Shown here piece by piece: positions 31,197 through 59,010 of a stretch of DNA of 64,000 nucleotides. How positions within the stretch are numbered: the stretch's first letter is position 1; each line of letters begins with the position of its first letter. Both the position numbers and the translations under genes were made by a program. The DNA is from an uncultured Elusimicrobia bacterium (GTDB taxonomy: Bacteria; Elusimicrobiota; Elusimicrobia; 2-01-FULL-59-12), in contig OY969767.1 in assembly GCA_963702895.1 (NCBI GenBank), forward strand, positions 672,001 through 736,000. Direction: 5' to 3'. The notes below the pieces were generated by a model that saw nothing but the letters and a program-made list of their open reading frames with translations, was not told where the DNA came from and made no database searches.

Positions 31197-31556
31197 CAAA
31201 GCAGAGACACGAAAGCAAAAACTCAGAGCAGAAATCTCGTATTTCTGCTTTGTGGCTTTGCTTTCGTCGGTCTGCTTTGTCAGTTCTGTTTTGATCTTTG
31301 AGAAAGATCCAGCTTTCAGAGCAGAATCACCAAAGCAGAGACACGAACGCAAAAACACAACGCAGAAATCTCAGAGTTCTGCTTTTGCTTTCGTCGGTCT
31401 GCTTTGAGGGCTCTGCTTTGCTCTTTGAGAAAGATCCAGCTCTCAGAGCAGAATCACCAAAGCAGAGACACGAACGCAAAAACTCAGAGCAGAAATCTCA
31501 GAGTTCTGCTTTTGCTTTCGTCGGTCTGCTTTGAGGGCTCTGCTTTGTTCTTTTGC
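31197..31556. repeat. Three tandem 127-134-bp hairpin units
   Basis: Units start CAAAGCAGAGACACGAA at 31197, 31331, 31458; each has a complementary TTCGTCGGTCTGCTTTG arm. Confidence 0.9.
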
Positions 31557-32901: not shown

Positions 32902-32918
32902 CAGGCTCCCGGAATACG

Positions 32919-33326
32919 GCGGATCTTCGGTACTGTGGGGCGGATCTACAGTACTGTGGGGCGGATCTTTGGTTCCATGAGGCGGATCTTCGGTACCGTG
33001 AAGCGGATCTACAGTACCGTGGGGCAGATCTTCGGTACCGTGAGGCAGATCTTCAAGCTCCATGAGGTGGATCTTCGGTACCGTGAGGCGGATCTTCGGA
33101 ACCGTGAGGCAGATCTCCAAGCTCCATGGGGCGGATCTTCAGCTCCGTGAGGCGGATCTTAGGAACCATGGGGCGGATCTACAGCTCCGTAAAGCAGATC
33201 TTCAAGCTCCATGAGGCGGATCTTTGGTTCCATGAGGCGGATCTTCAGTACCGTGAGGCGGGAATATATCCCTTTGGTCCGCCGTATGGTACCGGGGATC
33301 TGCCGTACGGTACCGGAGATCCGCCT
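32919..33326. repeat. 21/22-bp tandem repeat (~16 units, consensus GCGGATCTTCGGTACCGTGAG) followed by ~2 inverted units
   Basis: Direct reading of the sequence. Confidence 0.92.
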
Positions 33327-43191: not shown

Positions 43192-44298
43192 CTAATTCGG
43201 TATCAGGGCTATCAGCGTCTTGACGGCCACGGACTGCTGCGCGGGTACGCTTAAAATCATGGCGTTGTACTTATTTTCCTGGAACGTGACATCGCCCCGC
43301 ACCGCTTCGCCTTCCTTCTGAAAAGCGCCGGTGAGAAGGTTAGCAAAATTGGTCTCCGTGATCAAATCAAGCAGATGGGGCCTCTTCCGGTCTGATTTTG
43401 GGGAGGGCTCTCCTGTGTCGGAGACCACCCGGTTGTCCTTGTCCGCCACGATGATCCGGGCGCCTGGTAAGAGGGTCGTGGCAAGCTGCTCGATCCAAGC
43501 CTTCTCCTGTTCCGCCCGGGCGCTGAGGGCCGTCGTCTGGCGTTGGAGCTCATTTTTGATCTGCCGCACAAGCTGGTTGAAGGCGGCCGCCACTTTGCCA
43601 AACTCATCGGGATATTCCGGGAGGCTGGGGTCCGGGGAGGCGGGATTGAGGCTGCTGAGCGTTGTCCGGAAGTTTTGGAGAGGCTGCAGCACCCAGCGGT
43701 GCACAAAGAGCGACACAAAAGCAAAGCAGGTCATGAGCGACCCAATAATGATGAACCAAAACCGCTTGCGGGATGAGGTGACCTGCTGCTCAATGGACCT
43801 GTAGGTGAGGTCAATCCGAATGGCCCCTAAGGGGCCGGGGAGGCTACGGACCACGAGGGGCGTCAAGAGCGCCAAGGCCTTGCCGCCGGAATTTTCATAG
43901 ACCGCAATGCTCGCCTCTCCCGTTTTGAGGGTGTTGAGGATCGCGGCGTCCGAAGCGGGGGTGCCGACTCTTTCCGAGTCCCGGTGGTAGCGGAAATCCC
44001 CCCGTTGGTCAATCACATAGATGGAAAAAATCTCCTGGTCCTCCTCGAGCTGGTTGATGACTTGGAGGAGCGTCACATCGTCCTTCTGGATCAGGGCGGA
44101 AGCGATGCGGTCAGCGGAATAACGGTTAATGAAGCTCGCCTTTTCTCTTAAGCGTGTTTCGAGATTGGTCCTTTCCTGCCTCGCGAAGAACATTTGAGAA
44201 CTCAAGGCGGTCATGATGACCAGACACGCCGAAAGGAGGAAAAAGCGCTTCAACAAGCTCTCTGAGAGAAGAGAGGTCATACGCTCATCGGGAGGCAT
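43192..44298 (-). CDS. Membrane sensor-like protein (periplasmic domain, HAMP, PAS-like tail, no kinase domain)
   Basis: Two TMs; HAMP 'VLQPLQNF...DEFGKVAAAFNQL'. Confidence 0.75.
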   Translation of the reverse strand: MPPDERMTSLLSESLLKRFFLLSACLVIMTALSSQMFFARQERTNLETRLREKASFINRYSADRIASALIQKDDVTLLQVINQLEEDQEIFSIYVIDQRGDFRYHRDSERVGTPASDAAILNTLKTGEASIAVYENSGGKALALLTPLVVRSLPGPLGAIRIDLTYRSIEQQVTSSRKRFWFIIIGSLMTCFAFVSLFVHRWVLQPLQNFRTTLSSLNPASPDPSLPEYPDEFGKVAAAFNQLVRQIKNELQRQTTALSARAEQEKAWIEQLATTLLPGARIIVADKDNRVVSDTGEPSPKSDRKRPHLLDLITETNFANLLTGAFQKEGEAVRGDVTFQENKYNAMILSVPAQQSVAVKTLIALIPN

Positions 44299-45733
44299 CC
44301 ATAGCGACCTTCTCCTGCTTGGCCCGCTGGAGCGCGACGTAGATATGTTCGTTGTCCGGGTCGTACTGCGAAGCGAGTTCCAGTTCCTGCACCGCTTGAT
44401 GATAATTTTTATTACGAATGGCGGCCAGTCCTGAGCGGTAGTGCTGGCTGGCCTTTACGGGATCGGCGGGCCGGCGGACAGGTGCCGGCGTGGAGGTAGA
44501 AGGTCCCTCCTGGCCGCTGGGCGGAGATCCTGGCTTGTCCTTTGAGGTTTTTTCGTTTACGGGCGTGACCCGTGCCTTGTTGGAAGCTGTGATCTTGCTT
44601 TCCGCTTCTTTGATGCCTTTCTTCGAATTTTCAACCTCATAACCATAGTTCAGGCTTTCTTTCCAAAAGTTGATCGCCGCCGCGTAGTGTTTCTGGGACA
44701 TGGCGCTCTTGGCGGATTGATAGGAAGCCTTGCCCAGCTCGATTTTAACGCGAGCGTACATCTTTCTGGCCTCGGTGTTGCGCGGTTCAAGCAGGAGGAT
44801 CTGCTCATAGGCCTTCAGAGCTTCGGTCAGGTCCTTTTCCTCGTAGAGCTGTTTGGCCCGTGCGAGGAGTCGTGAGGACTGTCCCTTTTGGAGAGCGAGC
44901 TGTGTCTTGGCCATCATCATGGTCAGCCCGCGTTCTTTCAGGGCCGGGTCAAGAGCAATAGCGTTGGACCAATTGTCGAGGGCCTGCTCATAATCTCGCT
45001 TTTTGTAGTTTCGGTAGCCTTCCTCATATTGTTGTTGGCCCAGCTCGCGGTTCACTTCCGCGATTTTCTTCAGGGCCGGTTTGTACGAAGGGTTGATGGC
45101 GAGTGCCTGCTTCCAATAATTGATCGCTTGGACGTTGCGTCCCGCTTTGCGCGCTTCATTTCCTTTGCGCATGTAATCGTCGAGCAATCCGCGCTTACTC
45201 TCAATTTGGCGGCCCTCTTTGATCGAGAAAATCTTTTCACGCAAGGCCGCGACGTCCTCATAGTGGGGGTCGACCGCATAAATGTTGTTGAGGTACTCCA
45301 AGGCCTCGTCATAGCGGCCCAAATTGTAAGCATCGAGAGCGTCCCGGTAGAACACGTCCAAGGTGTCTCGGGCCACGGATTCTTTGGCGGAGCGAATGGA
45401 CTGTTTAAAGAGCGTCTTTTCGGACGTGGTCACGCCCCGGCCGCCTTCCATGGCGGCGGCCCGCAAGATGGCTTCCTTTTGAGTTTCATCAGCGGCGTGC
45501 AGCGGGGAGAGAAGAAGAAGGAAAATTATCGAACCGGCGAACCGCCCGCCACTACAGCACGGCGGGCCCGCCAACGATGTGATGGCGGGGCGAACCAGAG
45601 ACACGGTGTACCGGAGTAACGGGGTGTCGGGGTAACGGGGTAACGGACTTGACTCCGATACTCCGACACTCCGGTACCCCGATACCGGTTTTACGCCGAT
45701 TCCCCGACCTGCCGACTCGGCCATAGCGGCCAT
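44285..45733 (-). CDS. Exported TPR-repeat protein (TadD/pilotin-like position); N-terminus carries repeat-derived sequence
   Basis: Multiple TPRs; 'IIFLLLLSPLHA' signal cleavage site preceded by octamer-repeat-encoded residues. Confidence 0.8.
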   Translation of the reverse strand: MAAMAESAGRGIGVKPVSGYRSVGVSESSPLPRYPDTPLLRYTVSLVRPAITSLAGPPCCSGGRFAGSIIFLLLLSPLHAADETQKEAILRAAAMEGGRGVTTSEKTLFKQSIRSAKESVARDTLDVFYRDALDAYNLGRYDEALEYLNNIYAVDPHYEDVAALREKIFSIKEGRQIESKRGLLDDYMRKGNEARKAGRNVQAINYWKQALAINPSYKPALKKIAEVNRELGQQQYEEGYRNYKKRDYEQALDNWSNAIALDPALKERGLTMMMAKTQLALQKGQSSRLLARAKQLYEEKDLTEALKAYEQILLLEPRNTEARKMYARVKIELGKASYQSAKSAMSQKHYAAAINFWKESLNYGYEVENSKKGIKEAESKITASNKARVTPVNEKTSKDKPGSPPSGQEGPSTSTPAPVRRPADPVKASQHYRSGLAAIRNKNYHQAVQELELASQYDPDNEHIYVALQRAKQEKVAMDASR

Positions 45734-45740
45734 AGTGTAC

Positions 45741-46610
45741 CTATTTCTGCGCAAAGAAGTTGAGCGCGATGGGGCCAAAAATGATCACAAAGACGATGGG
45801 AAAGAAGAACACCATCATGGGAAAAAGCAGCTTCACCGGCGCCTTTCCGGCCAGGTCTTCGGCGCGCAAAATGCGTTTGCTCCTCATATCTTCCGCGTAG
45901 CTTCGCAGAATGGTCGAAAGCGATGTCCCCAGTTCTTCGGATTGGATGATGATGGAGGTCAGCGACTGCATGTCGGACAGATTCACACGAAACGCCAGGT
46001 GCTGGAGCGCTTCTTTTCGCGGCGCGCCCAGGCGGCACTCCTGCAAGAGGAGCGCGAATTCATCTTTCAGGGGCGCCGGCTTCATTTTTTCCATGATGCG
46101 CTCCACCGCCGCGAGAAAATCCAGCCCGCCTTCCAGGGTGAGCGCCGCCAGATCGACAAATCCAGGGAGCTGTTTTTGAATGGAGGCCTGGCGGGCCTGC
46201 CCCTTGGCCTGGATGTAAATATCCGGCAGCCAAAATCCGGCGACGAGTCCAATGAGATAGAGAAGAGGTTGTTGCGCGCCCGAGCGCCAGAAGAGGAGCA
46301 CGAAGAAGAGCCCCGTAAGCTCTTTCACGAAGAGAAAGTTTTCGGCCTTCCAGCCAAAGGGATAGCCGCTTCGCAAAAGAAGGAGCTCGAGGCGCTCCCG
46401 GAGCTTTTGATAGCGCAGGAGGGACTTATTGAAGGAGAGCTTTTCGCTAAACTCGGTAAAACCACGGAGGGCCTTTTGGCCGAGCTCTTCCTTGGGGGCC
46501 TCGGAGGCGGTCACCCATTGTTTTTGGGACTTGGAGTCCAAATAGAGCCCTAGCCCCTGATAAACAAGGAGGAAAATGGGTACGGCGATCAGGATAGGTC
46601 CCCAGTCCAT
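45741..46610 (-). CDS. tadC: Tad inner-membrane platform protein TadC (T2SS F family)
   Basis: 'LPGFVDL..L..EGGL.F', 'QSEELGTSL...LR', 'AE..AGKAPVKLLFP'. Confidence 0.92.
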   Translation of the reverse strand: MDWGPILIAVPIFLLVYQGLGLYLDSKSQKQWVTASEAPKEELGQKALRGFTEFSEKLSFNKSLLRYQKLRERLELLLLRSGYPFGWKAENFLFVKELTGLFFVLLFWRSGAQQPLLYLIGLVAGFWLPDIYIQAKGQARQASIQKQLPGFVDLAALTLEGGLDFLAAVERIMEKMKPAPLKDEFALLLQECRLGAPRKEALQHLAFRVNLSDMQSLTSIIIQSEELGTSLSTILRSYAEDMRSKRILRAEDLAGKAPVKLLFPMMVFFFPIVFVIIFGPIALNFFAQK

Positions 46611-46615
46611 AGTCG

Positions 46616-47470
46616 TTAGACGTCGATGGCGACGATTTTCTTCGTGACGATAATGCCAATCACTTCCCAAACGATTAAAAAGATGACCACCAGCTGTCCC
46701 AAGGGGGACGTGAGGGCCGGCCTCATGAGGTCGGGGGACATCACGATGAAAAGCAGGGCCAGGACCCAGGGGAAAGCCGACAGAAAGAAAATCTGTGAGC
46801 GCGCCTGCGCCGTGATGGCGCGCGCTTTTTTCTGGAGCTTGTTTTCCTCCCGGATGGTGAGCACGAGCTGCTCAAAAACCTTCAAAATATTGCCGCCTGT
46901 CTCGCGCTGGATGTTGATGGCGTACACCACGGTTTCCAGGGTCTTGCTGTTGATGCGCTCCAGGAGCTCCACGAGCGCCCTCTCAAGCGACGATCCCAGG
47001 CGATAGGAATTGAGGACGAGCCCAAACTCTTCGGAGATGGGAGGCGCCATGCTCGTGACGACCCGCTCAATCCCCGCGACCATATCCAGGCCGCTGCGGA
47101 GAGAATTGGACATGAGAAGAAGCGCGTCCATGAGCTGGGCCTCCACCTGGGCGGAGCGGACTTCCTTCCACATTGACAAGAGCATCTTGGGCGCCACAAA
47201 CCCCGCGGCAATGACGGCTGCTCCGATCACCCAGCTCCGGGTCAGAAGCCCCAACAGAACAGCCAGCACCCCCGCGCCCATCATGATCTGCGTAGGCCGG
47301 ATATTGAGGAAAAACCTGCTTAATTCGCGCGCCGTCTGGCGGGATTGGCTCTTGTACTGTTCCCGGTAGACACCGAAGAGCTCTGGAATAATCCGGACGA
47401 TGCCCAGGGACAGGAAGAACACGCACACAAACACATAGAGGTGGCCGATGAAATCGGGTCCTGGGTTCAT
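46616..47470 (-). CDS. tadB: Tad inner-membrane platform protein TadB
   Basis: 'QLMDALLLMSNSLRSG', 'PISEEF', 'IQRETGGNI', 'RAITAQAR'. Confidence 0.92.
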   Translation of the reverse strand: MNPGPDFIGHLYVFVCVFFLSLGIVRIIPELFGVYREQYKSQSRQTARELSRFFLNIRPTQIMMGAGVLAVLLGLLTRSWVIGAAVIAAGFVAPKMLLSMWKEVRSAQVEAQLMDALLLMSNSLRSGLDMVAGIERVVTSMAPPISEEFGLVLNSYRLGSSLERALVELLERINSKTLETVVYAINIQRETGGNILKVFEQLVLTIREENKLQKKARAITAQARSQIFFLSAFPWVLALLFIVMSPDLMRPALTSPLGQLVVIFLIVWEVIGIIVTKKIVAIDV

Positions 47471-49631
47471 GCCGCTTCTCCCTTGCCGTTCTTGTTCTCA
47501 AAGATGGCGGGGTCCAGGTGCAGGCCCTTGGCCTTCAGTTCGTCGAAAAAGGAGGGGAGCTTGCCTAGGGCTTCATAATGCCCCATGACCCGGCCGTCGT
47601 CATCGACACGGTCCTGGACAAAGCGAAAAAGGTCCTGGGAAAGAATCGTTTCGTCGCTGCGTCCCGTCACTTCCGTGATGCAGACCACTTTGCGCGTCCC
47701 ATCCTGAAGCCGGGCGAGCTGCACCACGAGATGCACCGCCGAACGGATCTGCTCACGCAGGGCCCACACCGGCAGGTCCATGCCGGCCATGAGACACAGG
47801 GTTTCCAGGCGCGTAAAACAATCTTGGGGGCTGTTGGCGTGAATGGTGGTGAGCGAGCCGTCGTGGCCCGTGTTCATCGCCTGGAGCATGTCCAGGGCTT
47901 CCCCGCCGCGGCACTCACCGACGACAATCCGATCGGGCCGCATGCGCAGGCAGTTCTTAACGAGGTCCCGTATGCTCACCTGGCCCTGGCCCTCAATATT
48001 GGCTGGCCGCGCTTCGAGTCGCACCACGTGTTCCTGCTGCATGCGAAGTTCGGCGGTGTCTTCCACCGTCACGATGCGCTCATTGTTGGGGATAAAGCTG
48101 GAAAGCATGTTGAGGATCGTGGTCTTTCCGGTGCCGGTACCGCCGGAGATCACCATGTTCTTTTTGAGCAGCACGCTGACCTTCAGAAAATCGATCATCG
48201 TGGGGGTGATCGATTGCGAACGGACCAAGTCCGCAGGGCCGAGGGCCCGTTCCGGAAAGCGGCGGATGGTGAGAGTCGGCCCCTGCACGGCCAAAGGCGG
48301 GATGATGGCGTTGACGCGTGAGCCGTCCTTGAGGCGGGCGTCGACCATCGGCGCGCTTTCATCAATGCGCCGGCCGAGGGGAGAGATGATCCTTCGAATG
48401 ACCTGGACCACATGGTTGTTATCAATGAAATGTTTGTCCGAGAGCGTGATTTTTCCGAGGCGCTCAATGAAAACCTGATCGAAGCGGTTCACCATGATTT
48501 CCGTGACGGAGGGGTCGGCGAGCAGCTCCTCGAGAGGCCCGAGCCCCAGGGCCTCGTCCACCATTTCCTTCACGAGCCGCTCGCGCTCTTCTCGGCTGAG
48601 CTCCATGTCCTTTTCCTTCGAGATAATGCTGTTCACGGTGCTCTCGACATTGGTGCGGAGCTGCCGTTCACGGACCGGGTCGCCTTTGGTGTCCAAATCA
48701 ATGCGCCGGATGTTGAGTTCTTCGACGAGTTCGCGGTGGACGTGCTGCTTGAAAGTGGTCCAGCGTTTCCTTTTTCTTCCACCACCTTGTCGGTGACCTG
48801 ATGTTCGAGCGCGGCCGACGTCTTCCTGCTCGAAGGGGAGCTCGGGGCACTCCCTGAGTTTACCGCGCCGGAACGAAAGGTCCGCGGACCGTCCGCTTTC
48901 GGGAGCGCGTCGATCAATCGCTGGACGGCCGTGAGGTAACCCGAAAGCCCTCTCTGGAGGATGACCGGTTGACCTTGGTTCAACAATAAACTCAATTCCG
49001 GTTCGTTCGGAAGCTCCACAGAGACCGATTTTTGAAACCGCCCGAGCGCCTGGGAAATGCTTGGGGCTGGCAGTGCGTGGGGGGAATCGGATTGGTTCAG
49101 GGCAAAAAGAAATTTGTGAAAGCCAACTTTTTGGTTATGGAGAATCTCCATGTGCTGCAGAGTGGATTTGACGGAGAGCGCGTGAGGAAGGAAGGTCCAG
49201 ATCACGACATCGGCCAGGTCCAAGGCTGAGAGCAGCAGCGGATGCGTCATTTCCATGTCGATCACGAGGTCATGCAGCTTGGCATAACCTTCCACAAAAA
49301 ACTTAAAGTGGTCCGTCTCCACGTGGGCCGCTTCGGCAGGGTGGGCGGCGAGCGAAATGGTCCCAACATTCAGCTTGTTGACCGGCACCCTCCCGCGCAG
49401 CATAGGGAAGGAGATCTTTTGACTCGCGATGATTTCCAGGAGGCTCGTGAGACTGGGGGACAAGGGCGAACCGGATATTTGGGCGGCGTCCCCTCTGCAA
49501 AAGGGGTCCGCGTCAAGGATCAGAGCGGGCTGATGATGAACGCGCGCGAGCCCCGCGGCGACATTGACCGCCAGCGTCGTTTTGCCGACCCCCGCCTGAG
49601 GGCCGATCACCAGAATGATTTTGTTGGCCAT
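47467..49631 (-). CDS. cpaF: Fused CpaE/TadZ (MinD/ParA-like) - CpaF/TadA pilus ATPase, with apparent -1 frameshift at ~48770
   Basis: N-part 'GPQAGVGKTTLAVNVA'; C-part 'GLGPLEELL.DP.VTEIMVN', 'GGTGTGKTT', 'LRMRPDRIVVGECRG.EA', 'AMNTGHDG'. Confidence 0.88.
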
Positions 49632-49721
49632 AATGATCAGTCCCGCGTCTCGAGTCTCGGGGCCCGCGTCTTGAGTCTCACATTTGTTCTGAGCTTGTGA
49701 CCCGGGACTCGGGACTCGGGA

Positions 49722-50648
49722 CTAAGATTTTACCAGGCGGAACGTGACAAAGATCACAAGGGAGGTCTGCGTCACTTTCTCGTCCTTGTGCCTGAACAGG
49801 AGCCCTAAAATGGGGATATAGCCCAGGATCGGAACGCGCACGATGACTTTTTCTTTGCGTGACTGTTTGATGCCCGCCAGCACAACGGTTTCACCGTCTC
49901 TGACTTCCACTTTGGTGCTTGCTTCCCGGGTGGCCATGCCCGACACCATGGCCCGATCGACGGGGATGGCGACCGACGCGTCAGGATTGGAGACATTCAC
50001 ATTGATCTGGGCATCAATGGTTTCCCGCGGCGTGATCTGGGGGAGGATCTTCACTGACACGCCATATTTCTTGTACTCCACGCCGGAGACGCCCCCCTGG
50101 CCGACTTGGGGATAGGGGACCTCTCCTCCGACAAGAAAACTCGCCTCAAAGCCGCTCTTGGAGAGCAGGGTGGGATTGGCCAGGACCCTGACCTGATTGT
50201 TTTTGATCATGGCGTCGAGTATCCCGGCGAGTGGAGCGCGCTGAATTTCTCCCACTTTAAACAAGGACGGAACGGGCGACTCTTCAAGAAAATTGATTTG
50301 ACCTGCTCCTGGATTAAAGGCGTCTCCCCAGAGAAGGCCGACAAGCGCTGTATTGCTTTCGCTGATTTCCAGGGAGTCGACGCTGACTTCGATCAGCGGT
50401 TCCCTCGCTCCGGTTGCGGTGCTGGGAGTGGGCCCGGCCGCGGGAGCGGGCGCCGCGCCGAGGAGGCTGTTACTGGTGAGCAGAAGCGCGAGCGCCATTG
50501 AGAGATAACGGCGTAACGGAGTAACGGAGTAACGGGGTAACGGGGTAACAGCACAGATACTTTTTGCTGTGACTCCGTTACCCCGATACTCCGATACTCC
50601 GATACGGCTTTCTTGGGTCACACGGCCCAAAAGCACTGGGTCTTTCAT
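49722..50648 (-). CDS. cpaC: Tad secretin (CpaC/RcpA-like), secretin domain only
   Basis: 'VLANPTLL..SG.EASFLVGGEVP', 'EYKKYGV', 'DGETVVLAG', 'VPILGYIPILGLLFR', 'LVIFVT'. Confidence 0.85.
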   Translation of the reverse strand: MKDPVLLGRVTQESRIGVSEYRGNGVTAKSICAVTPLPRYSVTPLRRYLSMALALLLTSNSLLGAAPAPAAGPTPSTATGAREPLIEVSVDSLEISESNTALVGLLWGDAFNPGAGQINFLEESPVPSLFKVGEIQRAPLAGILDAMIKNNQVRVLANPTLLSKSGFEASFLVGGEVPYPQVGQGGVSGVEYKKYGVSVKILPQITPRETIDAQINVNVSNPDASVAIPVDRAMVSGMATREASTKVEVRDGETVVLAGIKQSRKEKVIVRVPILGYIPILGLLFRHKDEKVTQTSLVIFVTFRLVKS

Positions 50649-50655
50649 ACTAGGA

Positions 50656-50710
50656 AGTGTAACGGATGACTGTTACGGCGATGTTACGTTTTTGTAACAA
50701 ATTCGTTAAT
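50656..50710 (-). promoter_or_regulatory. Four 11-bp-periodic GTTAC boxes plus -10 TACACT upstream of the secretin operon
   Basis: Boxes start at 50672, 50683, 50694, 50705. Confidence 0.7.
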
Positions 50711-50817
50711 TTACGCGGTGTTTTGGTCGTTGAAAGTCACTTTAATTCGTTTTTTCGGGCATTTTTGGTCAATTTGAGGGGGGTAGGTGGCAATTCAATC
50801 ATCTACTGTTCTCTATC

Positions 50818-50901
50818 GTCATCCCCCCCGGGTGTAAGGGGGGGATCCATGAATGCCGCACGACAATGATAGATCCCCCGCTAACACCCGCGGGGGATGA
50901 C
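50818..50901. repeat. REP-like palindrome, family A
   Basis: GTCATCCCCCCC..GGGGGGATCC...CCCCCGC..GCGGGGGATGAC. Confidence 0.85.
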
Positions 50902-50970
50902 GTCGTAGAGACTTATGGCACAGTCTCCAGGATGACAGCAGAAAGACTTCACGAATTCTGGGATGGAAAT

Positions 50971-51711
50971 CTACTTCAGAATGGACCCTGGCGTGACAAC
51001 GGGAATTTGGTAAACCTGATTATCGCCATGGGGCCGCACGACCACGGAGATGTCCCCTTGGGATTCTGTTTGGGCGAGCGCGAGCGTCTGCACCTCGATG
51101 GGGTTGAGTGCCAGGGTCAAAATGAGGCTTTCGGCCGCTTCCTTCTTGCCCGAGACGTCCTCATTAGATTTCTTGAGTTCGCGTCCGACGGCGACGACCA
51201 GGATGTTTTGCAAAATTGTATGGGTGAGTTTCGTGGTTGCGTTTTCTTTGCGCACGTTAAAGGTCGCGATGATATCAATGAAGTCCCCGGGCAGGATCAA
51301 GTTGGCGACATCGACGTTTCCCAGACGCAAGAGGTACCCCCGCTTGCCGGGGGGAATGAGCGGCGCGACTCCGGTGGTATTGGGGGAAGGAAAGATCAGA
51401 TTGGACATCACGATTTGCGAGCCTTCCGGGACCGAAGCGATCGTCACTTTCCCTTTCACGCGGCCCAGGGCATCCGCAGGGACTTTCACCACCACAGCGC
51501 CGGGGGCGACATAGCGGAGCGGCACATTTTGTGTGGTGACATCGCGTTCGGTGATTTCCGTGCGGGGGGGAATGTCTTTGGCGGCGGTGAGCACTTCCAC
51601 CATGCCGTAGGCGTTGGCGAGGGCCTTCTCCTTTTCCTTGAGGTAGAACTGGATGAACCCGATGGCAAAAAGCGCGCTGATCAGGACCTGAAGAAGTTTC
51701 TTATGCTTCAT
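50971..51711 (-). CDS. cpaB: Flp pilus assembly protein CpaB/RcpC
   Basis: SAF 'VLTAAKDIPP'; 'IPPGKR', 'LPGDFIDII', 'ILQNILVVAVG', 'LTLAL.P.E...LALAQ'. Confidence 0.92.
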   Translation of the reverse strand: MKHKKLLQVLISALFAIGFIQFYLKEKEKALANAYGMVEVLTAAKDIPPRTEITERDVTTQNVPLRYVAPGAVVVKVPADALGRVKGKVTIASVPEGSQIVMSNLIFPSPNTTGVAPLIPPGKRGYLLRLGNVDVANLILPGDFIDIIATFNVRKENATTKLTHTILQNILVVAVGRELKKSNEDVSGKKEAAESLILTLALNPIEVQTLALAQTESQGDISVVVRPHGDNQVYQIPVVTPGSILK

Positions 51712-52373
51712 CGGGGTGGCTTCAAGTTCATTCTGGCCTTGGCTTTGGCATGCACAACAAAAGAGCCAGAACCACTCGAATTATAAGCAAAGGTCTTAAT
51801 GTCTTCACACTTCGCGGCTTCTCCTAAGCCCGCTTTCAGCGCCCCGCCCAGGATCGCATTCACGAAGGGGAATGCCTTCACTTCAGCGCAGGCCTCGACT
51901 CGGACATCCCGCAAAAGTGGATCAATGGGGCTGTCGGGGTCCTTCGGGTTTGCCCACGCGTCTGGGTTTTTCATCCCTGCCACAAAGAACTGTTCTAGCC
52001 TCCTATTGTAGTCTTGGCCGCCTGAGATATTCTCCGCCACGGCTTGCCGGGCGATGGCCGCCGCTCCGTAGTTGACAACGACGAGAGCCGTCGCCAATTG
52101 CCCCAGCTGCAACAACCCAAAGACCAGCAGGAAATATAAGGGCACCAACATCAATGTTTCGGCGCTGGCCTGTCCACGGCAATGATCAGGCTGCCGAAAA
52201 ACTTTTCCCAATGCCTCCTGGCCGGAAGTGTAGCAGCCAAGCCATTGACCGAGCGCGCCTATGATCATCGACCCGCCCTTCCACTGGGCGGGCGCTCGAC
52301 GATGCACAGCAGAGCATTTTTGCAGGCTGTGGTATCTCAGGACATGCATGCATGCGCCCTTCGGCCGTTTCAA
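51708..52373 (-). CDS. TadE-like pseudopilin (start uncertain)
   Basis: 'RGQASAETLMLVPLYFLLVFGLLQLG...AAAIAR'. Confidence 0.8.
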   Translation of the reverse strand: MKRPKGACMHVLRYHSLQKCSAVHRRAPAQWKGGSMIIGALGQWLGCYTSGQEALGKVFRQPDHCRGQASAETLMLVPLYFLLVFGLLQLGQLATALVVVNYGAAAIARQAVAENISGGQDYNRRLEQFFVAGMKNPDAWANPKDPDSPIDPLLRDVRVEACAEVKAFPFVNAILGGALKAGLGEAAKCEDIKTFAYNSSGSGSFVVHAKAKARMNLKPPR

Positions 52374-52395
52374 ACTGGCCTGTCTGTAAACTTAT

Positions 52396-52572
52396 TTACT
52401 TAACTTTTCCATCTCTAATTGTCTCGGCGATCTTGCCCGCCTTGTCTTTGATTGCGGTCTCGATGGTAGGGAAGAACACGACCAAGAGTCCTATGATGAG
52501 CGCCAGGATCACGATATATTCTGTTGTTCCCTGCCCTTTGCGGCTTTTGAGGTAGTTCATGTAGCGATTCAT
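52396..52572 (-). CDS. flp: Flp major pilin, 58 aa (not in ORF track)
   Basis: Manual translation MNRYMNYLKSRKG|QGTTEYIVILALIIGLLVVFFPTIETAIKDKAGKIAETIRDGKVK; SD AAGGAGG. Confidence 0.9.
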   Translation of the reverse strand: MNRYMNYLKSRKGQGTTEYIVILALIIGLLVVFFPTIETAIKDKAGKIAETIRDGKVK

Positions 52573-52706
52573 TTCTTTGACCTCCTTCGGTATTGACCTT
52601 TAACCGGTATTGACCTTTAACGAAAGTGCTTGCGGCCGGCTCGATGTCCAGCCCTAAACGATCACTGCAATATTACACACAGGCTCAATCGAAGTAAAGC
52701 GTGTGA

Positions 52707-53021
52707 TTAGTCTTTGGCGATTTTCTCTACGGCGCCTTGGCTCATTCCCTTGATGGCGTCGGTGCCTCCATCGGCCGGAGTGAACGCGCGCATGATAAAA
52801 AAGCCAATCACCGTCAGGATCCCGAGGAGAAGGAGGTATTCGCTGGAGGACTGGCCGCCGTTCTTTAGGTAACGGTGTATCGGAGTATCGGAGTGTCGGG
52901 GTAACAGCATATCTTTTGTTTGGTGTGACTCCGATACGCCGATACCCCGATACTCCGTTACTGACATTGGCGTGACCCCGTTACTCCGATACCCCGATAC
53001 TCCGATACTGTCTTTTACCAT
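52707..53021 (-). CDS. Second Flp-like pilin with repeat-encoded leader
   Basis: 'KNGG|QSSSEYLLLLGILTVIGFF'; leader encoded by octamer arrays 52868-53010. Confidence 0.8.
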   Translation of the reverse strand: MVKDSIGVSGYRSNGVTPMSVTEYRGIGVSESHQTKDMLLPRHSDTPIHRYLKNGGQSSSEYLLLLGILTVIGFFIMRAFTPADGGTDAIKGMSQGAVEKIAKD

Positions 53022-54019
53022 CGCACCTTCACCGTCACCGTATGCGAGATGCCGAGCGCTCCAAAGGGCGCCATCGTGTAATCGACGACGAAATGGAGGG
53101 TCTTAAACTGAGGGGGACGCATTTCCAGGCCCCCGCCGAAGGTGAGGCCGGCGAGCGAAGCGCTGCGGAGCCAGGAAATCTTGGCGTCCAGAGAGTCATC
53201 GAGCTCATCCCGAGTATGGTAGCCCAAGCGGAGCACGGAGTTTTCCAGCTGCGGCATGCGGTATTCCCCCGCAAGCGAGATCCGTACCGGAGCGTCGTTC
53301 GTATATCCCAGCGCGAGCGCTGATGTAAAGATGGGGAGAAAGTCATAGGACAGCCCGCCGGTGAGTTCCAGAGGGAAATCCGCTTTTCCGGTCGACAGGT
53401 TTCTCGCCGTAAGGCCTACATGCAAAGTGTCCGAAGGGTCCAGCATGAGCCCGAGGTCCACGGCCGCGTTGTTGTATTTGGTGTCCGCGATCTTTTCCTG
53501 GATGACTTTGAGCTGTCCGCCCAGATAGAGGTCCATGCCAATCTCATCCCGTGACCGGAGCCGCCCGCCATAGCCAAGACCCAGCACGAGGTCGTAGGCC
53601 GAGAAGTCGCCCGTTTGAAGACCGGCGCTGTCCCGGCCTTCCATGTCGCCGGAGCCCAAATAAAAGAGGTTGGCGCCAAGGCCGCTCATATTGAAAGGAT
53701 GCGCGTAGCTGACATTTTCAATGGAGACGTCCTGGTAATATTCGATATGGGTTGCGGCGACTTCTTTGCTCGTTGTGAAGGCCAGCCCCGCGGGGTTCCA
53801 GCGCATGCCTTCCGTTCCTTTGGCGAGCGACACCATGGTGGCCCCCATCGCCACGCCCCGCGCGTCGGTAGGGATCTTCAGGAAGGCGCCGGCCTTCGTC
53901 CCCGCGTTGTCGCTAATCGCGTGAGCGGCGGACGGCGACAATAGAAAATAGACAATAGAGAATGCCGCAAGAGCTCTATTCTCTATTTTCCATTTTCGCC
54001 GTATGCCGTTCCTGTTCAT
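53015..54019 (-). CDS. PorV/PorQ-like (UPF0164) outer-membrane beta-barrel
   Basis: 'AGTKAGAFLKIPTDARGVAMG', 'WNPAGLA', 'VDYTMAPFGALGISHTVTVKVRW'. Confidence 0.85.
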   Translation of the reverse strand: MNRNGIRRKWKIENRALAAFSIVYFLLSPSAAHAISDNAGTKAGAFLKIPTDARGVAMGATMVSLAKGTEGMRWNPAGLAFTTSKEVAATHIEYYQDVSIENVSYAHPFNMSGLGANLFYLGSGDMEGRDSAGLQTGDFSAYDLVLGLGYGGRLRSRDEIGMDLYLGGQLKVIQEKIADTKYNNAAVDLGLMLDPSDTLHVGLTARNLSTGKADFPLELTGGLSYDFLPIFTSALALGYTNDAPVRISLAGEYRMPQLENSVLRLGYHTRDELDDSLDAKISWLRSASLAGLTFGGGLEMRPPQFKTLHFVVDYTMAPFGALGISHTVTVKVRW

Positions 54020-55143
54020 CGGATCACCGCCAACTTCTTAATGGTCTGCACGGTGCCTTCCGGGTCCTCTTCCCTGACGACAAAGTAATAGACCCCGCGC
54101 CCAACGGCGTTTCCCGCCTCATTGGTCGTGTCCCAGTTAAACGTGACGGTGTTGCCGGTGGCCTGGTTCAAGAAGCTCTCCTCCCGGACCAGGTCTCCCG
54201 CAAGCGTGTAAATCTTGAGCGTGATATTGGCGTTATTGCGCACGGCCAAAAACTGGAAGGTGGCCTGGCTGTTCCGGATGGGATTGGGAAACACGATGGC
54301 GTTGTCCGCGAAGAGCTGATCGAGACTGGAACCCAAGCGCGCCAGAGACTGGATGGCGATGGAGCCGGAGCGTTGGATCGCCCTATCGGCGCTTCCGGGG
54401 TCCTTCGCGTCGACGTAGACGGTATAAATTCCAAGAGGAACGGGTTTGGCGTCGTCGCCGAGGCCGTCCCACATCAAAATATTGGTCTTAATATGTTCAC
54501 CATACTGCGGCGCGTCGGTGGCCAGCGTGCGCTTGAGCGTACCGCTTGAATCTTTTATTTGAACTGTGACGAGCGAGTCTTTGGCCAGGTCATAGACGAT
54601 GTAATAGGGGAGAGTCGGGTTTTGGTTCGCGTCGGTGCTGGGAATGACGCTGAAATTGTGGATGTCAACGGAGGTGATTTCCAGTAGCTTGGGGATGGTA
54701 AAAGAGCTAACGCCGCTTGCGCCTCGCGCGATCAGGATCACCTGGAAATTACCGTTCTGCCGGCCGATATCGCCGCCTACAAGCCACAAGGCATTCCATA
54801 AGTAAGAATGGGCCCCGATGGCGACCCCGTGTTGCTGGATCGAAGCCACCTGGTTCAGCGAGCTGGGTTCTTCTGAAATGTCTTCGAGTCGGTGTATGTT
54901 GATTTCGATACTGGAGATCTCATCCGCCGTGGTGTAATTGATGGTGGTATCAAGGGGCGCACCGATGGTTTCATAGGGAATGGTGTAATTGGATAAGGAG
55001 GCGGCTGTCACAGCGGCGTCGACAGGAAGAGCACAGAGCAGAGAAACGAGAGCAGAAAGTAGAAGGCCGTACCGGAGTATCGGGGTAACGGGGTAACGGG
55101 GTAAGAGCTGCATAAATTGTTTGAAAAGACTTCTCATGGTCAT
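54016..55143 (-). CDS. Exported FlgD-Ig protein with T9SS type-A-like C-terminal sorting domain
   Basis: Signal peptide; 'WDG..D....VP.GIY'; 'VFPNP...LKIYTLAGDLVR...WD..NE.G..VGRGVY...KKLAVIR'. Confidence 0.82.
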   Translation of the reverse strand: MTMRSLFKQFMQLLPRYPVTPILRYGLLLSALVSLLCALPVDAAVTAASLSNYTIPYETIGAPLDTTINYTTADEISSIEINIHRLEDISEEPSSLNQVASIQQHGVAIGAHSYLWNALWLVGGDIGRQNGNFQVILIARGASGVSSFTIPKLLEITSVDIHNFSVIPSTDANQNPTLPYYIVYDLAKDSLVTVQIKDSSGTLKRTLATDAPQYGEHIKTNILMWDGLGDDAKPVPLGIYTVYVDAKDPGSADRAIQRSGSIAIQSLARLGSSLDQLFADNAIVFPNPIRNSQATFQFLAVRNNANITLKIYTLAGDLVREESFLNQATGNTVTFNWDTTNEAGNAVGRGVYYFVVREEDPEGTVQTIKKLAVIR

Positions 55144-55322
55144 CCTCTTAGTGTCTCCTTGATCTGCTGTTACTCCCCGCCATCACATAGTGGGCGGGCA
55201 TTACTCCGTTACCCCGTTACTCCGATACCCCGTTACTCCGGTACCCCGTTACTCCGGTACCCCGTTACTCCGATACTAACTTGGGTCTGCAGGCCCACCA
55301 CTGGGCCCTTCTTACTATGAGG

Positions 55323-55377
55323 AGTATAACCAGCGACTGTTACGGGAGTATTACGCTGGTGTAAAAACTGCGTTAAA
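55323..55377 (-). promoter_or_regulatory. Four 11-bp-periodic boxes plus -10 TATACT upstream of the CTD/PorV/pilin operon
   Basis: Boxes start at 55339, 55350, 55361, 55372. Confidence 0.7.
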
Positions 55378-55810
55378 TCCATCAAAATGGCTTTGGCCCT
55401 GTCAGGGGGATGGCGCGAAGTCTTTAGCGATTACGCTTGCCCTCACCCGGTAGTGTGCCTGAACACGCCCTCTCCCGCGTGCAAGCGGGAGAGGGTGGAG
55501 CGGATGGTCGCTTGAGCGACCAGACAGCGGAGGGTGAGGGCACGATCTCATGGCGATCAGCGTCAAAAGCACAGTCCTTTGATCCAGTGGGTGTTCAACA
55601 GGTGAGCGAATGATTCTTTTGCGCACGCAGCAGCGCCTGGTCTCATTTTGCCTTCCTGCCACCCCCAACAGGCGAGGCAGCGGGCTGTGGCTGCAGGTGA
55701 GCGAATGGTGTATTGAGCGAACGCAGCCACAGCCCGCTGCCCTCGCCTCCACCATTATTTAACATGTACGTAACATGTACCTGTTATATCTAGTGCAGCA
55801 GCATCATCAT

Positions 55811-56956
55811 ATGAAGAGGATCCTGAGCGGCAAGAACGGTCAGTTTATTCCGATTTCCGCCATGGTGTTGTTCACCATGTCGGTCTTCCTCGTCGCTGTC
55901 GTCAATATCTACACCGTCACCCGCGCCAAGCTCCAGGTCCAAAACCTGGCGGACGCGGCCGCCCTTAACCTCGCCTCGCAGCAGGCCCAGGTTTTTAATC
56001 TCGTGGCCGACAAAAACGAATGGCTCAATCACATGATGGAGGGAGTGAAGAGCCCGAATGAAGACGGCGGTCCGGATTGCAGCCTCTTCAGTGCCAAGAA
56101 TGCGACGCTCATCCCCGGCATTTCTTGTGTCGAAAATGACGATAGGACGGGTCTTGCTCGCGGAGACGCCATCACTGCTACCGATATCAAGAAAGCCTCC
56201 TCGCGCAACTATAGGGGACCAAACGATGCTGCCTTCAAGCGCCATATCTTTTCCTCCCGCGGCGGGGCCATCAATTATGGGCTGATCCTTCATACCGTCA
56301 ACCAGGCGCAGAAACTCTTTATTCAGGCTTACAACTCCTTCCTTGGCGCGCCGAATCCGGCGGCAGGCGGCGCCTCATCGTCCAACGCCACCCCGCGCAA
56401 TTTTACGGCCCTCTTAAAGAAGGATATCCCGGCGCTCCGAGATCCGAACATTCGCCTGGTGGCCTGGAACTCTTCAGGCAAAGAAGAGGAGGCCAGACAC
56501 TCGCTGGCCAGCAGCTTTACGCCGGGTGAGGAAAGTGAACTCAAAGCCAAAATGGAGCCCCTCCAGTTTGAAGTCGAACGTGATCTTCAGACCCGGTATC
56601 TGATGACGAATAAAGACGTGAATAAACCGGACGGGTGGATTGTCGGAGCCACCTTCGGCCAACTTTTGTACGGGTGCATCCCTCAGGATTGGGTCAACAA
56701 GGATGCCAGTTATAAACGTTGCGGGCCCTTGAACGGCCAAGATCCTGCGAAAATCGGATGGTTAAAGCCCATCGCTATGCCAACTCTCAAAGTGGGCAGA
56801 GGGTCCCCTCAGGTCGGCGTGGGCGTCATGATTCAAAAAAAGATTACGCTGCCCGTGCTGGGGAGCAAAACCGTGAGCGCCACATCCAAGGCATACATCG
56901 TCGGGACCGCTGGCAGCGAGTTCCATCCGACGTATTGGGTGAAGCTAGGGAAATAA
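55811..56956 (+). CDS. TadG-related pilus protein
   Basis: 'KNG|QFIPISAMVLF....VVNI......K.QVQNLADAAAL'. Confidence 0.8.
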   Translation: MKRILSGKNGQFIPISAMVLFTMSVFLVAVVNIYTVTRAKLQVQNLADAAALNLASQQAQVFNLVADKNEWLNHMMEGVKSPNEDGGPDCSLFSAKNATLIPGISCVENDDRTGLARGDAITATDIKKASSRNYRGPNDAAFKRHIFSSRGGAINYGLILHTVNQAQKLFIQAYNSFLGAPNPAAGGASSSNATPRNFTALLKKDIPALRDPNIRLVAWNSSGKEEEARHSLASSFTPGEESELKAKMEPLQFEVERDLQTRYLMTNKDVNKPDGWIVGATFGQLLYGCIPQDWVNKDASYKRCGPLNGQDPAKIGWLKPIAMPTLKVGRGSPQVGVGVMIQKKITLPVLGSKTVSATSKAYIVGTAGSEFHPTYWVKLGK

Positions 56957-57075
56957 CCGTATCGGAGTAACGCCCGCCACTACAGCTCGGCGGGCCCGCC
57001 AACGATGTGATGGCGGGGAGTATCGGGGTAACGGAGTAACGGCAAATTGAGGATGAAACTATTTTAGAGAGTATT

Positions 57076-57759
57076 ATGAGAAACCTAATGCGAATGCTTA
57101 TTCGGCCTTTACTCCGGTACTCCGGTACCCCGATACCCCGGTACCCCGGAACCGCCGCTTCGCTTCGCTCCGCGGCGGGTCAAGCCTCAAGCGAAATCCT
57201 CTTCCTCCTTCCGCTTTTCGTCATGATGGCCGGCCTTGCGCTTTATGTGGGATACATGTGCTATCAGGGCGTGAAGGTCCAGCACGCCGCCAATTTCGCC
57301 GCGCGCATCCAGGGGCAGGAGCGCATAGGAGGCGGTGTGAGTCAAGACAGCATCAATCGATTAAATGGTCTGGAAGGCGCCTATGACGAAATCCCGGACG
57401 CGGCGACTCTGAGGAGCCTCTCAGGCAAAGATGTCCCGCCGGGGCGTCTGCGGAGGAAGGGACTCCATGGGGTGTATTGGAAGTATCGAACGCTTGCGGG
57501 AGAACTTTTCTATGAGGCCCCTGAAGACAAGCTTCTCTTCCCGAAACCGGACCTCGGCATCAATTCGGACAGGGTCCGGGTCGCGAGAATCTTGGTCCCT
57601 CCGAAGCTTTTCGGTCTGCAGATGGCGCCCATGGTTCTCGAGGCGGAGGCCTATGGGGGCGAAGACCCCCGGATGTACGGCCTGCCGCGCTGGGGTGAAA
57701 CAGGTGGTAAAACAGAATCGTTTTATAAAACCCAGATCAGGGAAAAGATAGGGCCATAA
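57076..57759 (+). CDS. TadE-like pseudopilin with repeat-encoded leader
   Basis: 'AG|QASSEILFLLPLFVMM....HAANFAAR'. Confidence 0.78.
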   Translation: MRNLMRMLIRPLLRYSGTPIPRYPGTAASLRSAAGQASSEILFLLPLFVMMAGLALYVGYMCYQGVKVQHAANFAARIQGQERIGGGVSQDSINRLNGLEGAYDEIPDAATLRSLSGKDVPPGRLRRKGLHGVYWKYRTLAGELFYEAPEDKLLFPKPDLGINSDRVRVARILVPPKLFGLQMAPMVLEAEAYGGEDPRMYGLPRWGETGGKTESFYKTQIREKIGP

Positions 57760-59010
57760 TGGAGTAACGGAGTATCGGAGTATCGGAGTGCCGGGGTAAC
57801 GGAGTAACGGGGTGCCGGAGTAACGGAGTAACGGAGTATCGGAGTAACGGAGTACCGGAGTAACGGAGTAACGGGGTCACGGCAGGCTGCAACGAAGTGC
57901 CGGAGTGTCGAAGTATCGGTGTAACGGCACGACGATCGAAAAGGAGGAATGTGGATAGACAATAAATTGAGAATGTTGAGCCATTGGACTTTGAGGTTTT
58001 GACTCCGATACCCCGTTACTCCGTTACGCCTTTGCCGTTACCCCGATACTCCGGTACCCCGTTACTCCGATACGTCGTTTCTTCAACGAATGAGCCAGCT
58101 CTCAGGCGATTCGATCATTCGGACCAACTGAGACAGGATTTGATCATAAGTCAATCGCAGAGCAGCGGCACGGGAAGGGTCAAGGTATCGACAATGAACG
58201 GCAAATTCGATCCAGGTCCGGGTTTCACACGCTTCGCATTCAGCGTCGTTCAGCTTGGCAACAAAAGCTGCTTTGTATCGGCGTTTTCTCCAGGCTTCGG
58301 CCAGATTGGAGCAAACAGAGCGTGAACTTCTTCTTATTTGATCCACCAGGGAGTATCGCTCTTCGCTTGGGAATTCCTTTGTCAGGTGGAATATTTCCAT
58401 GGCGACTTGGAAAGCGTTCTTGTAAACGAGCAACTCCTCAAGGTTTCTGGCAAACGGATTCATCTATATCCTTAGATGCAATTTGCCAAGATTTATTCAT
58501 TTCTCCGTCCATCTCCCGCTGTTACGCCGTTGCCGTTACCCCGGCACTCCGATACCCCGTTACGCCGTTGCCGTTACCCCGGCACTCCGATACCCCGTTA
58601 CGCCGTTGCCGTTACCCCGATACTCCGGTACCCCGTTACGCCGTTGCCGTTACCCCGGCACTCCGATACCCCGTTACGCTGTTGCCGTTACCCCGATACC
58701 CCGTTACCCCGATACTGCCACCCCGGGGCCCACGTTTCCCGTGGGACTTCTGGTCGGGGAAAAAAGGTCTTTGGATCGATTCAATGTGCGCCCGGCGGGC
58801 AGTATCCTTATGGTGTGGAAAAAAAGGTTCCTGGGAGGGGATCTTTTAGGTCGACTATTATGATAACGCGATACTTATCGTGGTTGTATCGGCGTATCGG
58901 AGTATCGGCGTATCGGCGTATCGGAGTCACGGCCGTTACCCCGACACTCCGATACTCCGTTGCGCCGTCGCCTTTACCCCGATACCCCGTTACCCCGATA
59001 CCCCGTTACG
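57760..59010. repeat. Octamer tandem arrays (GGAGTAAC/GGGGTATC and reverse complements) at 57760-57926, 58001-58072, 58520-58717, 58885-59010
   Basis: Direct reading; further copies at 45605-45700, 50505-50607, 52868-53010, 55068-55104, 55201-55277, 56958-57043, 57108-57150. Confidence 0.92.
58083..58463 (-). CDS. Four-helix-bundle protein (23S rRNA-IVP/bAvd-like family)
   Basis: 'EELLVYKNAF...IFHLTKEFPSEERYSLVDQIRRSSRSVCSNLAEAWRKRRY..AF...L.DAE.EA.ET..W'. Confidence 0.93.
   Translation of the reverse strand: MNPFARNLEELLVYKNAFQVAMEIFHLTKEFPSEERYSLVDQIRRSSRSVCSNLAEAWRKRRYKAAFVAKLNDAECEACETRTWIEFAVHCRYLDPSRAAALRLTYDQILSQLVRMIESPESWLIR

Follow-up and report, generated by a model that had tools for sequence, protein, structure and literature searches.

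What are the tandem octamer hairpins along a Tad pilus locus, and why do the longest of them surround a gene for a small four-helix-bundle protein? The question is raised by a stretch of 64,000 nucleotides from an uncultured Elusimicrobia bacterium (contig OY969767.1), here called the window, which covers positions 672,001-736,000 of a genome available as a single 2.72-Mb contig. An earlier note, made from the letters of the window, described arrays of one octamer family at the 5' ends of exported Tad-locus genes and around a gene related to Avd. It offered two explanations, a co-regulation of envelope and pilus genes by an oligomeric protein reading the repeats, and a selfish element spreading into leaders where insertions are tolerated. 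The latter is the better fit. The arrays belong to a genome-wide hairpin family of tandem 8-base units. One full-length copy encloses a PF05635 gene, and all copies in the Tad locus as well as the other dispersed copies are gene-less. With moderate confidence, the arrays are regarded as the arms of a selfish element family similar to the intervening sequences (IVSs) of 23S rRNA, with a protein that would serve the element and not pilus control. This reading builds on the observed architecture of the element, its dispersal, one insertion polymorphism and the link between gene and repeats.

Octamer hairpins in the window

The octamer hairpin repeats are real. The unit of the family is GTAWCGGR, read as GGAGTAAC in the earlier note. 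The window holds 71 exact matches to GGRGTAWC versus 4.03 expected (100 dinucleotide shuffles; standard deviation 2.0, maximum 9), and the interval 45,613-59,004 takes in 67 of the 71. Tandem Repeats Finder (TRF) called period-8 arrays at every site that had been named before. A looser unit model, GG[AGC]GT[AGC][ATC]C with at least three units per arm, yielded 16 arms within the same span. At every paired locus, a 5' G-rich arm is followed by a 3' C-rich arm. Most units read GGAG, not GGGG. Gene-strand RNA folding against 200 shuffles each resulted in negative z scores at the TadE-like, pilin-like, secretin and TPR genes (Table 1).

Counts, TRF and folding confirm the octamer family with pairing G-rich and C-rich arms as first described. 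Its positions at the 5' ends of the TPR, secretin, pilin-like, FlgD_ig/CTD and TadE-like genes and of a giant open reading frame (ORF) were recovered as well, and the peptide that had been quoted is present in the secretin frame. The confinement to 45.6-59.0 kb holds for the window, given the 67 of 71 matches, and fails for the genome, in which 99 arms at 56 loci were found.

The PF05635 gene and its full-length element

The gene between the longest arrays is intact and carries an AAGGA motif 5 nt upstream of its ATG. Pfam searches of the protein returned PF05635 (E 5.6e-30, 104 bits versus a cut-off of 33.8), a weak match to the bAvd model (25.9 bits, under its 40-bit cut-off) and nothing else. 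By sequence and by fold, the entries 2GSC and 2RLD, both of them five-chain depositions, are the nearest solved relatives. A structure model predicted from 40 homologues (pLDDT 96.1) reaches TM scores of 0.84-0.94 to these two entries. Compared with Bordetella phage Avd (4DWL chain D), the predicted fold gives TM scores of 0.75/0.87 and a root-mean-square deviation of 1.7 A at 13% identity. The family match and the modelled fold agree with the assignment, made from the letters, to a four-helix bundle related to Avd.

The longest arrays of the window do flank this gene, with a G arm of 15 units and a C arm of 19 units. They form a stem of roughly 200 nt, and the gene is located in the loop. The flank-to-flank inverted match comprises 113 nt at 80% identity (E 1.7e-18). 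Folding of the gene strand pairs the outer arms across the ORF (-438.9 versus -336.8 +/- 9.1 kcal/mol, z -11.2), a fold matched by none of 20 shuffles. The element is positioned between the TadE-like gene and the giant ORF, outside rRNA. The only large-subunit (23S) rRNA match of the genome, at 581,316-584,326, contains none of the ten PF05635 paralogues. A gene for RNase III is present in the genome.

Avd is known from diversity-generating retroelements (DGRs). Three RVT_1 genes occur in the genome, at 230,277, 463,860 and 1,962,540, none within 200 kb of the PF05635 gene. A DGR at this locus was rejected on account of this distance of more than 200 kb. A template/variable repeat pair was not seen, no search having been aimed at such pairs. 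The three RVT_1 ORFs have 507 aa each and near-equal scores, and are probably copies of one retroelement.

Distribution of the octamer family in the genome

The 56 loci divide into 35 simple G-then-C hairpins, 18 loci with one detected arm and 3 composite loci; none is reversed. Of these loci and of the 99 arms, 11 and 25, respectively, lie at 717-752 kb, a 35-kb region that surrounds the gene-bearing copy and makes up 1.3% of the genome. About 15 loci are located in leaders of exported or membrane proteins, including seven paralogues at 2,186-2,224 kb. In-frame positions within genes account for at least 15 loci; the genes include enzymes resembling MiaB, QueA, QueG, BioF and phosphoglucomutase, as well as ORFs of 6,000-12,800 codons. 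Leader and internal counts were read by hand, as automatic classes mislabelled several loci through spurious frames. Mapping of the octamer over the genome, as proposed with the first description, puts a part of the copies in export leaders and shows a family not confined to Tad or exported genes. Housekeeping genes, in which no arrays had been seen in the window, carry octamer hairpins in frame elsewhere. A marking of exported Tad genes as a regulon is not supported; the family is genome-wide.

Seven paralogous large secreted proteins (550-1,500 aa) at 2,186,940-2,223,976 have a start encoded by an octamer hairpin (...LPRYTVTPLLRYSLLLLLAAPAAQA). This start is shared by all seven, and therefore the hairpin was duplicated along with the genes. 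The longest octamer arm of the genome, 32 units or 376 nt, lies within 742,708-744,884, 7-9 kb past the window end. Together with a second large hairpin, it brackets an AAA-type ATPase-like ORF just past the end of the giant gene. The hairpin at 742,708-743,201 has very unequal arms (7 versus 32 units). Long hairpin loops at 205, 237, 634 and 1,640 kb were inspected for cargo genes and contain no convincing ORF.

The genome holds 553 tandem arrays in total, including several other hairpin families with units of 7 or 8 nt. The three-unit octamer pattern was found in none of 60 relatives, of which the three from the same genus are 73-89% complete assemblies in 260-480 contigs with repeats often unassembled.

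Link between PF05635 genes and repeats

Gene and repeats are linked far beyond chance, both in this genome and across phyla. Ten PF05635 genes are present in the genome, the other paralogues being 19-26% identical to the window copy. Eight of the ten have a tandem array within 150 bp. The background is 8.5% for 20,000 random segments and 10.1% for 1,520 long ORFs, which corresponds to P values of about 1e-7 and 4e-7, respectively. An association with four-helix-bundle paralogues, proposed as a test in the earlier note, is found, though each of the eight adjoins a different unit family. Inverted flank-to-flank matches at E < 1e-3 bracket seven of the ten genes, again with a different unit each: the octamers, TTTTGGA, GTCCCGN, AATAGAA, CTGAGCT, GAGAGCA and CGTCCGA. 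The 11-mers of six of the eight arms were found again at distant loci, in numbers (57, 28, 12, 8, 8 and 4 loci) that exceeded those of all 20 shuffles. The highest count belongs to the arm beside the window gene, for which the shuffles reached a maximum of 12.

Two paralogues show further features. The PF05635 frame at 497,113-497,655 continues into a flanking 21-nt array, which adds a tail of DAGLETR/DAGLKTQ repeats (six copies) after the four-helix domain. The paralogue at 1,698,211 has a short arm missed by TRF, and the matching arm is found 870 bp away, beyond another gene. In this region (1,698,118-1,699,417), the far-side ORF of 273 aa resembles an amino-acid kinase, and the inverted arms would enclose two genes.

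In two related genomes, G004 and G005, most PF05635 genes are likewise bracketed. The heptamer GTGGACC beside one PF05635 gene of G004 is also the heptamer of the G004 Tad locus.

The nearest homologues of the window protein (49-70% identity) occur in about a dozen other phyla. Inverted-repeat bracketing was detected for 50 of 75 homologues with enough flank, versus 11 of 75 in a direct-repeat control. Period-8 arrays stand on both sides at 47 of 80 homologue loci, and period-7/8 arrays were present in 133 of 154 proximal flanks versus 18 of 137 distal segments. On the protein tree, the unit class requires 23 changes versus 42.1 with shuffled labels, and none of 200 shuffles was as low; the classes were defined after the data had been seen, 19 of 81 rows fall into the class 'other', and kin share labels. 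One clade (99% support, 35 rows) includes 31 rows with GAAGGT-type units from six phyla. Chloroflexota and Planctomycetota share GGTGAC units around related proteins. What the tree shows is co-inheritance and not recognition. The cognate units of genomes from other phyla are dispersed in those genomes in 5/5 and 4/5 cases, and are absent from the present genome.

Insertion polymorphism and strand asymmetry

The hairpin in the MiaB-like gene is a clean insertion of 126 nt (42 aa) in a variable loop. None of the four relatives in the alignment, three from the same genus, has it, and the MiaB match is split at the insert site in all eight relatives searched.

Folding of the two strands was compared for 26 hairpins with assignable gene direction. 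The more stable fold is that of the antisense strand, not the mRNA strand, in 21 of them (median 6.6 kcal/mol; Wilcoxon p 5e-4), and in 16 of 21 after paralogues were collapsed (p 0.0045). The asymmetry is driven by the in-gene copies (11/12), in which the mRNA has A.C where the opposite strand has G.U. Its direction is opposite to the expectation from the excess of G and, as is typical, of T on the leading strand. The replication strand is confounded with gene direction; the discriminating cases are 3 to 1 in favor of transcription, too few to decide. The asymmetry fits a selection against strong structure in translated RNA, with in-gene copies being tolerated, not used. One DNA run sharing words with the stretch yielded short low-depth contigs only, without joints or length variants, and a search for RNA runs covering window 55,000-59,300 found none.

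Hairpins and leaders along the Tad locus

Matches to Pfam confirm the genes of the Tad locus, with two T2SSF, T2SSE, ParA-like, Secretin, RcpC/CpaB, two TadE, Tad/TadG, PorV-like and FlgD_ig/CTD domains. The genes and hairpins are listed in Table 1, with gene starts as deduced from ORFs.

Table 1. Hairpins, arms and genes of the Tad locus and the PF05635 element (positions in the window)
Feature	Position	Strand	Remarks
TPR protein gene	44,285-45,778	minus	
Octamer hairpin, TPR gene	G arm 45,613-45,644; C arm 45,657-45,680		upstream of or in leader; RNA fold z -3.7
Heptamer hairpin GTCCCGN / NCGGGAC	49,640-49,723		occupies ParA-like/secretin gap; family other than octamers
Secretin gene	49,722-50,648	minus	Secretin PF00263
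Octamer hairpin, secretin 5' end	G arm 50,510-50,549; C arm 50,569-50,600		RNA fold -61.8 kcal/mol, z -11.6
Pilin-like gene	52,707-53,021	minus	
Octamer hairpin, 5' end of pilin-like gene	52,882-53,003		RNA fold z -6.9
Heptamer hairpin GAAAATA / TATTTTC	53,934-54,000	minus	third family
FlgD_ig/CTD protein gene	54,016-55,143	minus	start codon inside 110-nt hairpin loop
Octamer hairpin, CTD gene	G arm 55,074-55,097; C arm 55,208-55,271		110-nt loop
Octamer hairpin, TadE-like gene	57,017-57,147	plus	RNA fold z -3.4
TadE-like gene	57,076-57,759	plus	ATG (57,076) inside hairpin loop
Outer arm	57,761-57,880		15 octamer units, G-rich on plus; pairs with 58,521-58,710 across gene
Inner C-rich arm	58,007-58,068		7 units; between outer arm and 3' end of gene
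Four-helix-bundle gene	58,083-58,463 (genome 730,083-730,463)	minus	126 aa; PF05635 (23S rRNA intervening-sequence protein/S23p, Avd-like)
Outer arm	58,521-58,710		19 octamer units, C-rich on plus; 38-nt super-repeat; upstream on gene strand
Octamer hairpin, giant ORF	G arm 58,891-58,930; C arms 58,935-58,958, 58,981-59,004	plus	

The start codon is found in a hairpin loop in three genes, the TadE-like, the pilin-like and the CTD gene. The translated arms of these genes precede a prepilin-type or hydrophobic segment. The C arm of the TadE-like hairpin encodes the leader LLRYSGTPIPRYPGT. In the pilin-like gene, the arm downstream of the ATG encodes LLPRHSDTPIHRY, followed by GGQSSSEY, which we take to be a Flp-type site. 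The corresponding arm of the CTD gene encodes LLPRYPVTPILRY ahead of the hydrophobic core. In the giant ORF, the hairpin is placed in an N-terminal extension, immediately ahead of a signal-peptide-like core. Three octamers amount to 24 nt, and therefore the same eight residues arise from every frame of a C-rich arm (VTPLLRYS and variants). This type of peptide is free of stops and has one arginine per 8 residues.

Two hairpins of other families, absent from the earlier note, are located in the same locus. One of them fills the gap between the ParA-like and secretin genes, with its C-rich arm first, the reverse of the octamer order. A heptamer hairpin also occupies this gap in the relative G004 (L002 7,531-7,606). 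The two arms of the other one supply the entire signal-peptide-like N terminus of the PorV-like protein (MNRNGIRRKWKIENRALAAFSIVYFLLS). Its purine-rich arm gives the basic RRKWKIENR and its pyrimidine-rich arm the hydrophobic FSIVYFLLS. The GAAAATA/AATAGAA unit of this start recurs beside a PF05635 paralogue, at genome 811,644-811,994.

The Tad locus is syntenic in three other genera. Comparison of the orthologous loci revealed hairpins at the same junctions, but with units that differ between genera. In each of the three genomes in which the TadE-like leader is readable, a repeat hairpin encodes it; the units are GGAGTAAC in the present genome, octamers of the GGAGACRC type in G005 and the heptamer AGTGCTG in G004. 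Arrays were also found at the secretin, pilin-like and CTD starts of G005, and in G004 between the secretin and ParA-like genes and in the PorV-like start. These hairpins may result from recurrent insertion at tolerant sites or from replacement of old hairpins.

Other repeats of the window lie outside the span of 45,605-59,010. A 127-nt unit is present in 2.8 copies at 31,197-31,553 and is itself built of short CAGAG-type words. At 32,918-33,325, a 21-nt unit (GGCGGATCTTCGGTACCGTGA) occurs 16 times, followed by a short array resembling the complement of GGCGGATCTTCGGTACCGTGA.

Proposed mechanism and alternative explanations

The selfish-element reading is favored because octamer hairpins reside inside enzymes, because the MiaB insert is absent in four relatives, and because the in-gene copies are weakened on the mRNA strand. 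Gene-less copies would persist where they do little harm, that is at intergenic sites, in cleaved leaders, in the charged starts of signal peptides and in surface loops of enzymes. The protein is envisaged as a ring-shaped binder of the repeat stem of its own element, by analogy to the Avd pentamer. According to a report on DGR ribonucleoproteins, all five protomers of the Avd pentamer use the same residues to grip an 11-bp RNA stem-loop (bioRxiv 10.1101/2023.10.23.563531). Such binding might assist the copying or upkeep of the element rather than the control of pilus genes.

Several points weigh against this reading. No mobility mechanism is visible, and no catalytic domain was found in the protein. 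To our knowledge, PF05635 has no catalytic activity. Two of the ten paralogues (1,647,348 and 1,698,211) have no array within 150 bp by TRF. The octamers of the G005 Tad locus stand beside none of the six PF05635 genes in that assembly, which is 92% complete in 80 contigs. Neither the MiaB site nor 35 hairpin borders showed a target-site duplication, with arm ends ill-defined and relatives too diverged. Hairpins at the same Tad junctions in three genera could mean function, not tolerance. Those of the present Tad locus show no weakening on the mRNA strand (differences of -5.5 to +2.2 kcal/mol), which leaves room for a role, or for young age. The clustering of unit types on the protein tree may be plain linkage. 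The loops of gene-less copies are unrelated to each other and to the interior of the full-length copy, the innermost GTCAC/GTGAC unit being the sole likeness. They are therefore not simple deletion derivatives of that copy. Finally, unit families without a resident gene exist, for instance GTGATTAA with 7 arrays.

The last two points lead to the alternative that survives best. The hairpins may spread alone, by slippage or recombination, and the gene may be a separate mobile cassette that enters the tips of stem-loops; the link would be real and the protein inert on the arrays. Known IVSs are indeed located in rRNA helices (helix 45 of 23S rRNA), and the heptamer number beside the Coxiella ORF varies between strains (Warrier et al., 2016, PMC4990558). 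Arms as unequal as those at 742,708-743,201 are what slippage gives. This explanation is considered unlikely, though with a real chance. The unit type follows the protein tree across phyla, suggesting that gene and arms move together, a period of 8 is retained on both sides at more than half of the loci of the protein subfamily, and six of the eight bracketing arms match a family dispersed in this genome.

Regulation of the Tad locus, the first proposal of the earlier note, is doubtful and ranks lower. An oligomer of the four-helix-bundle protein would bind the leader hairpins in the manner of TRAP and jointly control how the mRNAs of pilus, secretin and envelope genes are translated or how stable they are. 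Seven octamer hairpin loci within 13.4 kb around the gene, at gene 5' ends, speak for it, as do the three start codons in loops, the recurrence at the same junctions in related genera, and the stems of the Tad locus, which stay strong on the mRNA strand in contrast to in-gene copies elsewhere. The grip of the Avd pentamer on an RNA stem-loop, as given in the cited preprint, would suit it as well. Opposed to a regulon are the spread of the family over 56 loci, including at least 15 in housekeeping or giant genes that have nothing to do with the envelope, the two other unit families within the Tad locus itself, and the exchange of units at the same junctions in related genera.

It is highly improbable that cruciforms or G-quadruplexes act on replication, supercoiling or transcription, as proposed for the Xanthomonas GGGAATC heptamers, with the gene being incidental here: runs of at least four GGGGTAAC units exist (e.g. 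2,502,164-2,502,203) and convergent G-rich heptamer pairs are mostly intergenic in Xanthomonas (Rehm et al., 2015, PMC4692102), but most units here carry GGAG, many copies are translated, and the gene link is strong and recurrent.

Relation to known systems

Both halves of the system are already in print: Rehm et al. (2015, PMC4692102) describe tandem heptamer hairpins, and Warrier et al. (2016, PMC4990558) the S23p-bearing intervening sequences of rRNA. In the Coxiella IVS, the S23p ORF lies in a 28-bp stem that is cut by RNase III, and tandem heptamers (GACAGAT) precede the ORF. An S23p-type protein from Xanthomonas is described as a homopentamer in the same article (Warrier et al., 2016). 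The selfish element proposed here resembles the IVSs of Coxiella burnetii and Leptospira in its small four-helix-bundle ORF within a long inverted-repeat stem loop and in the tandem short repeats beside the ORF; the IVSs are likewise regarded as selfish elements. Unlike these, the present element is located between protein genes outside rRNA, its stem consists of about 120-190 nt of tandem octamers instead of 28 bp, and the genome also contains more than 50 copies without a gene, many of which are translated.

The units GGGAATC in Xanthomonas and GGGGAYT in Nostoc are tandem heptamers in convergent inverted pairs, 89-93% of them intergenic (Rehm et al., 2015, PMC4692102). They share with the present family the tandem units of 7-8 nt, the G-rich array followed by an array on the opposite strand, the capacity to form stem-loops, and a genome-wide distribution near gene ends. 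The difference lies in the coding copies: the present 56 loci include at least 15 read in frame within genes and about 15 in export leaders. The words xcc0516, S23, four-helix and intervening are absent from PMC4692102, and no link to PF05635 is drawn there. In the full-text literature searched, which leaves out most subscription journals and supplements, no link was found between PF05635 and dispersed tandem-unit hairpins outside rRNA.

Related arrays are known from cyanobacteria as short tandemly repeated repetitive (STRR) sequences. Repetitive extragenic palindromic (REP) sequences and their doublets (REPINs) are dispersed short palindromes, with a single-copy gene for a REP-associated tyrosine transposase (RAYT) flanked by cognate repeats and several such pairs per genome. 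The single-copy gene flanked by genome-dispersed repeats recurs in the present element. However, its partner is a PF05635 helical bundle and not an HUH/Y1 tyrosine transposase, and its arrays have tandem units of 7-8 nt and variable length instead of one fixed palindrome. Miniature inverted-repeat transposable elements are defined by terminal inverted repeats together with a target-site duplication. Inverted arms are present here, and the ill-defined arm ends and the divergence of the relatives limit what the lack of a visible duplication says.

DGR Avd has the same predicted fold, and its pentamer on a stem-loop RNA may serve as a working model for the reading of repeat stems. It differs in that no reverse transcriptase is near the present gene, and in the low identity and the bAvd score under the cut-off. 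The trp RNA-binding attenuation protein (TRAP) is a ring oligomer that recognizes spaced triplet repeats in mRNA leaders. A ring oligomer with evenly spaced leader repeats was the analogy drawn in the earlier note, and would apply if the PF05635 protein forms such a ring. However, the fold of TRAP is unrelated, and the present repeats are paired into hairpins and not confined to leaders. Structures of DGR ribonucleoproteins, 8UBE and others, are covered by the cited preprint (bioRxiv 10.1101/2023.10.23.563531).

Implications

Beyond the selfish-element reading, a wider proposal is put forward tentatively. PF05635 rings may be sequence-specific readers of tandem 7-8-base stems, each paralogue being matched to its unit. 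They would constitute a self-propagating class, similar to REPIN-RAYT without a transposase fold, of which the rRNA IVSs and the arrays of the STRR/Xanthomonas type are faces, and which yields export leaders and start codons as by-products. The proposal predicts that each PF05635 paralogue binds its own cognate unit.

The translated copies are a case of repeats turned into protein, as leader peptides are encoded in full by hairpin arms, and so is at least one complete segment resembling a signal peptide. They are also a warning for annotation, since the starts of ORFs running through such arrays are uncertain. Structures of S23p/PF05635 proteins were solved in 2006-2007, and the proteins are still described as uncharacterised. 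The recurrent pairing of gene and repeats across phyla hints at a function of this family. If the wider proposal is true, that function would gain an explanation, and so would the origin of the tandem heptamer and octamer hairpins in many bacterial genomes.

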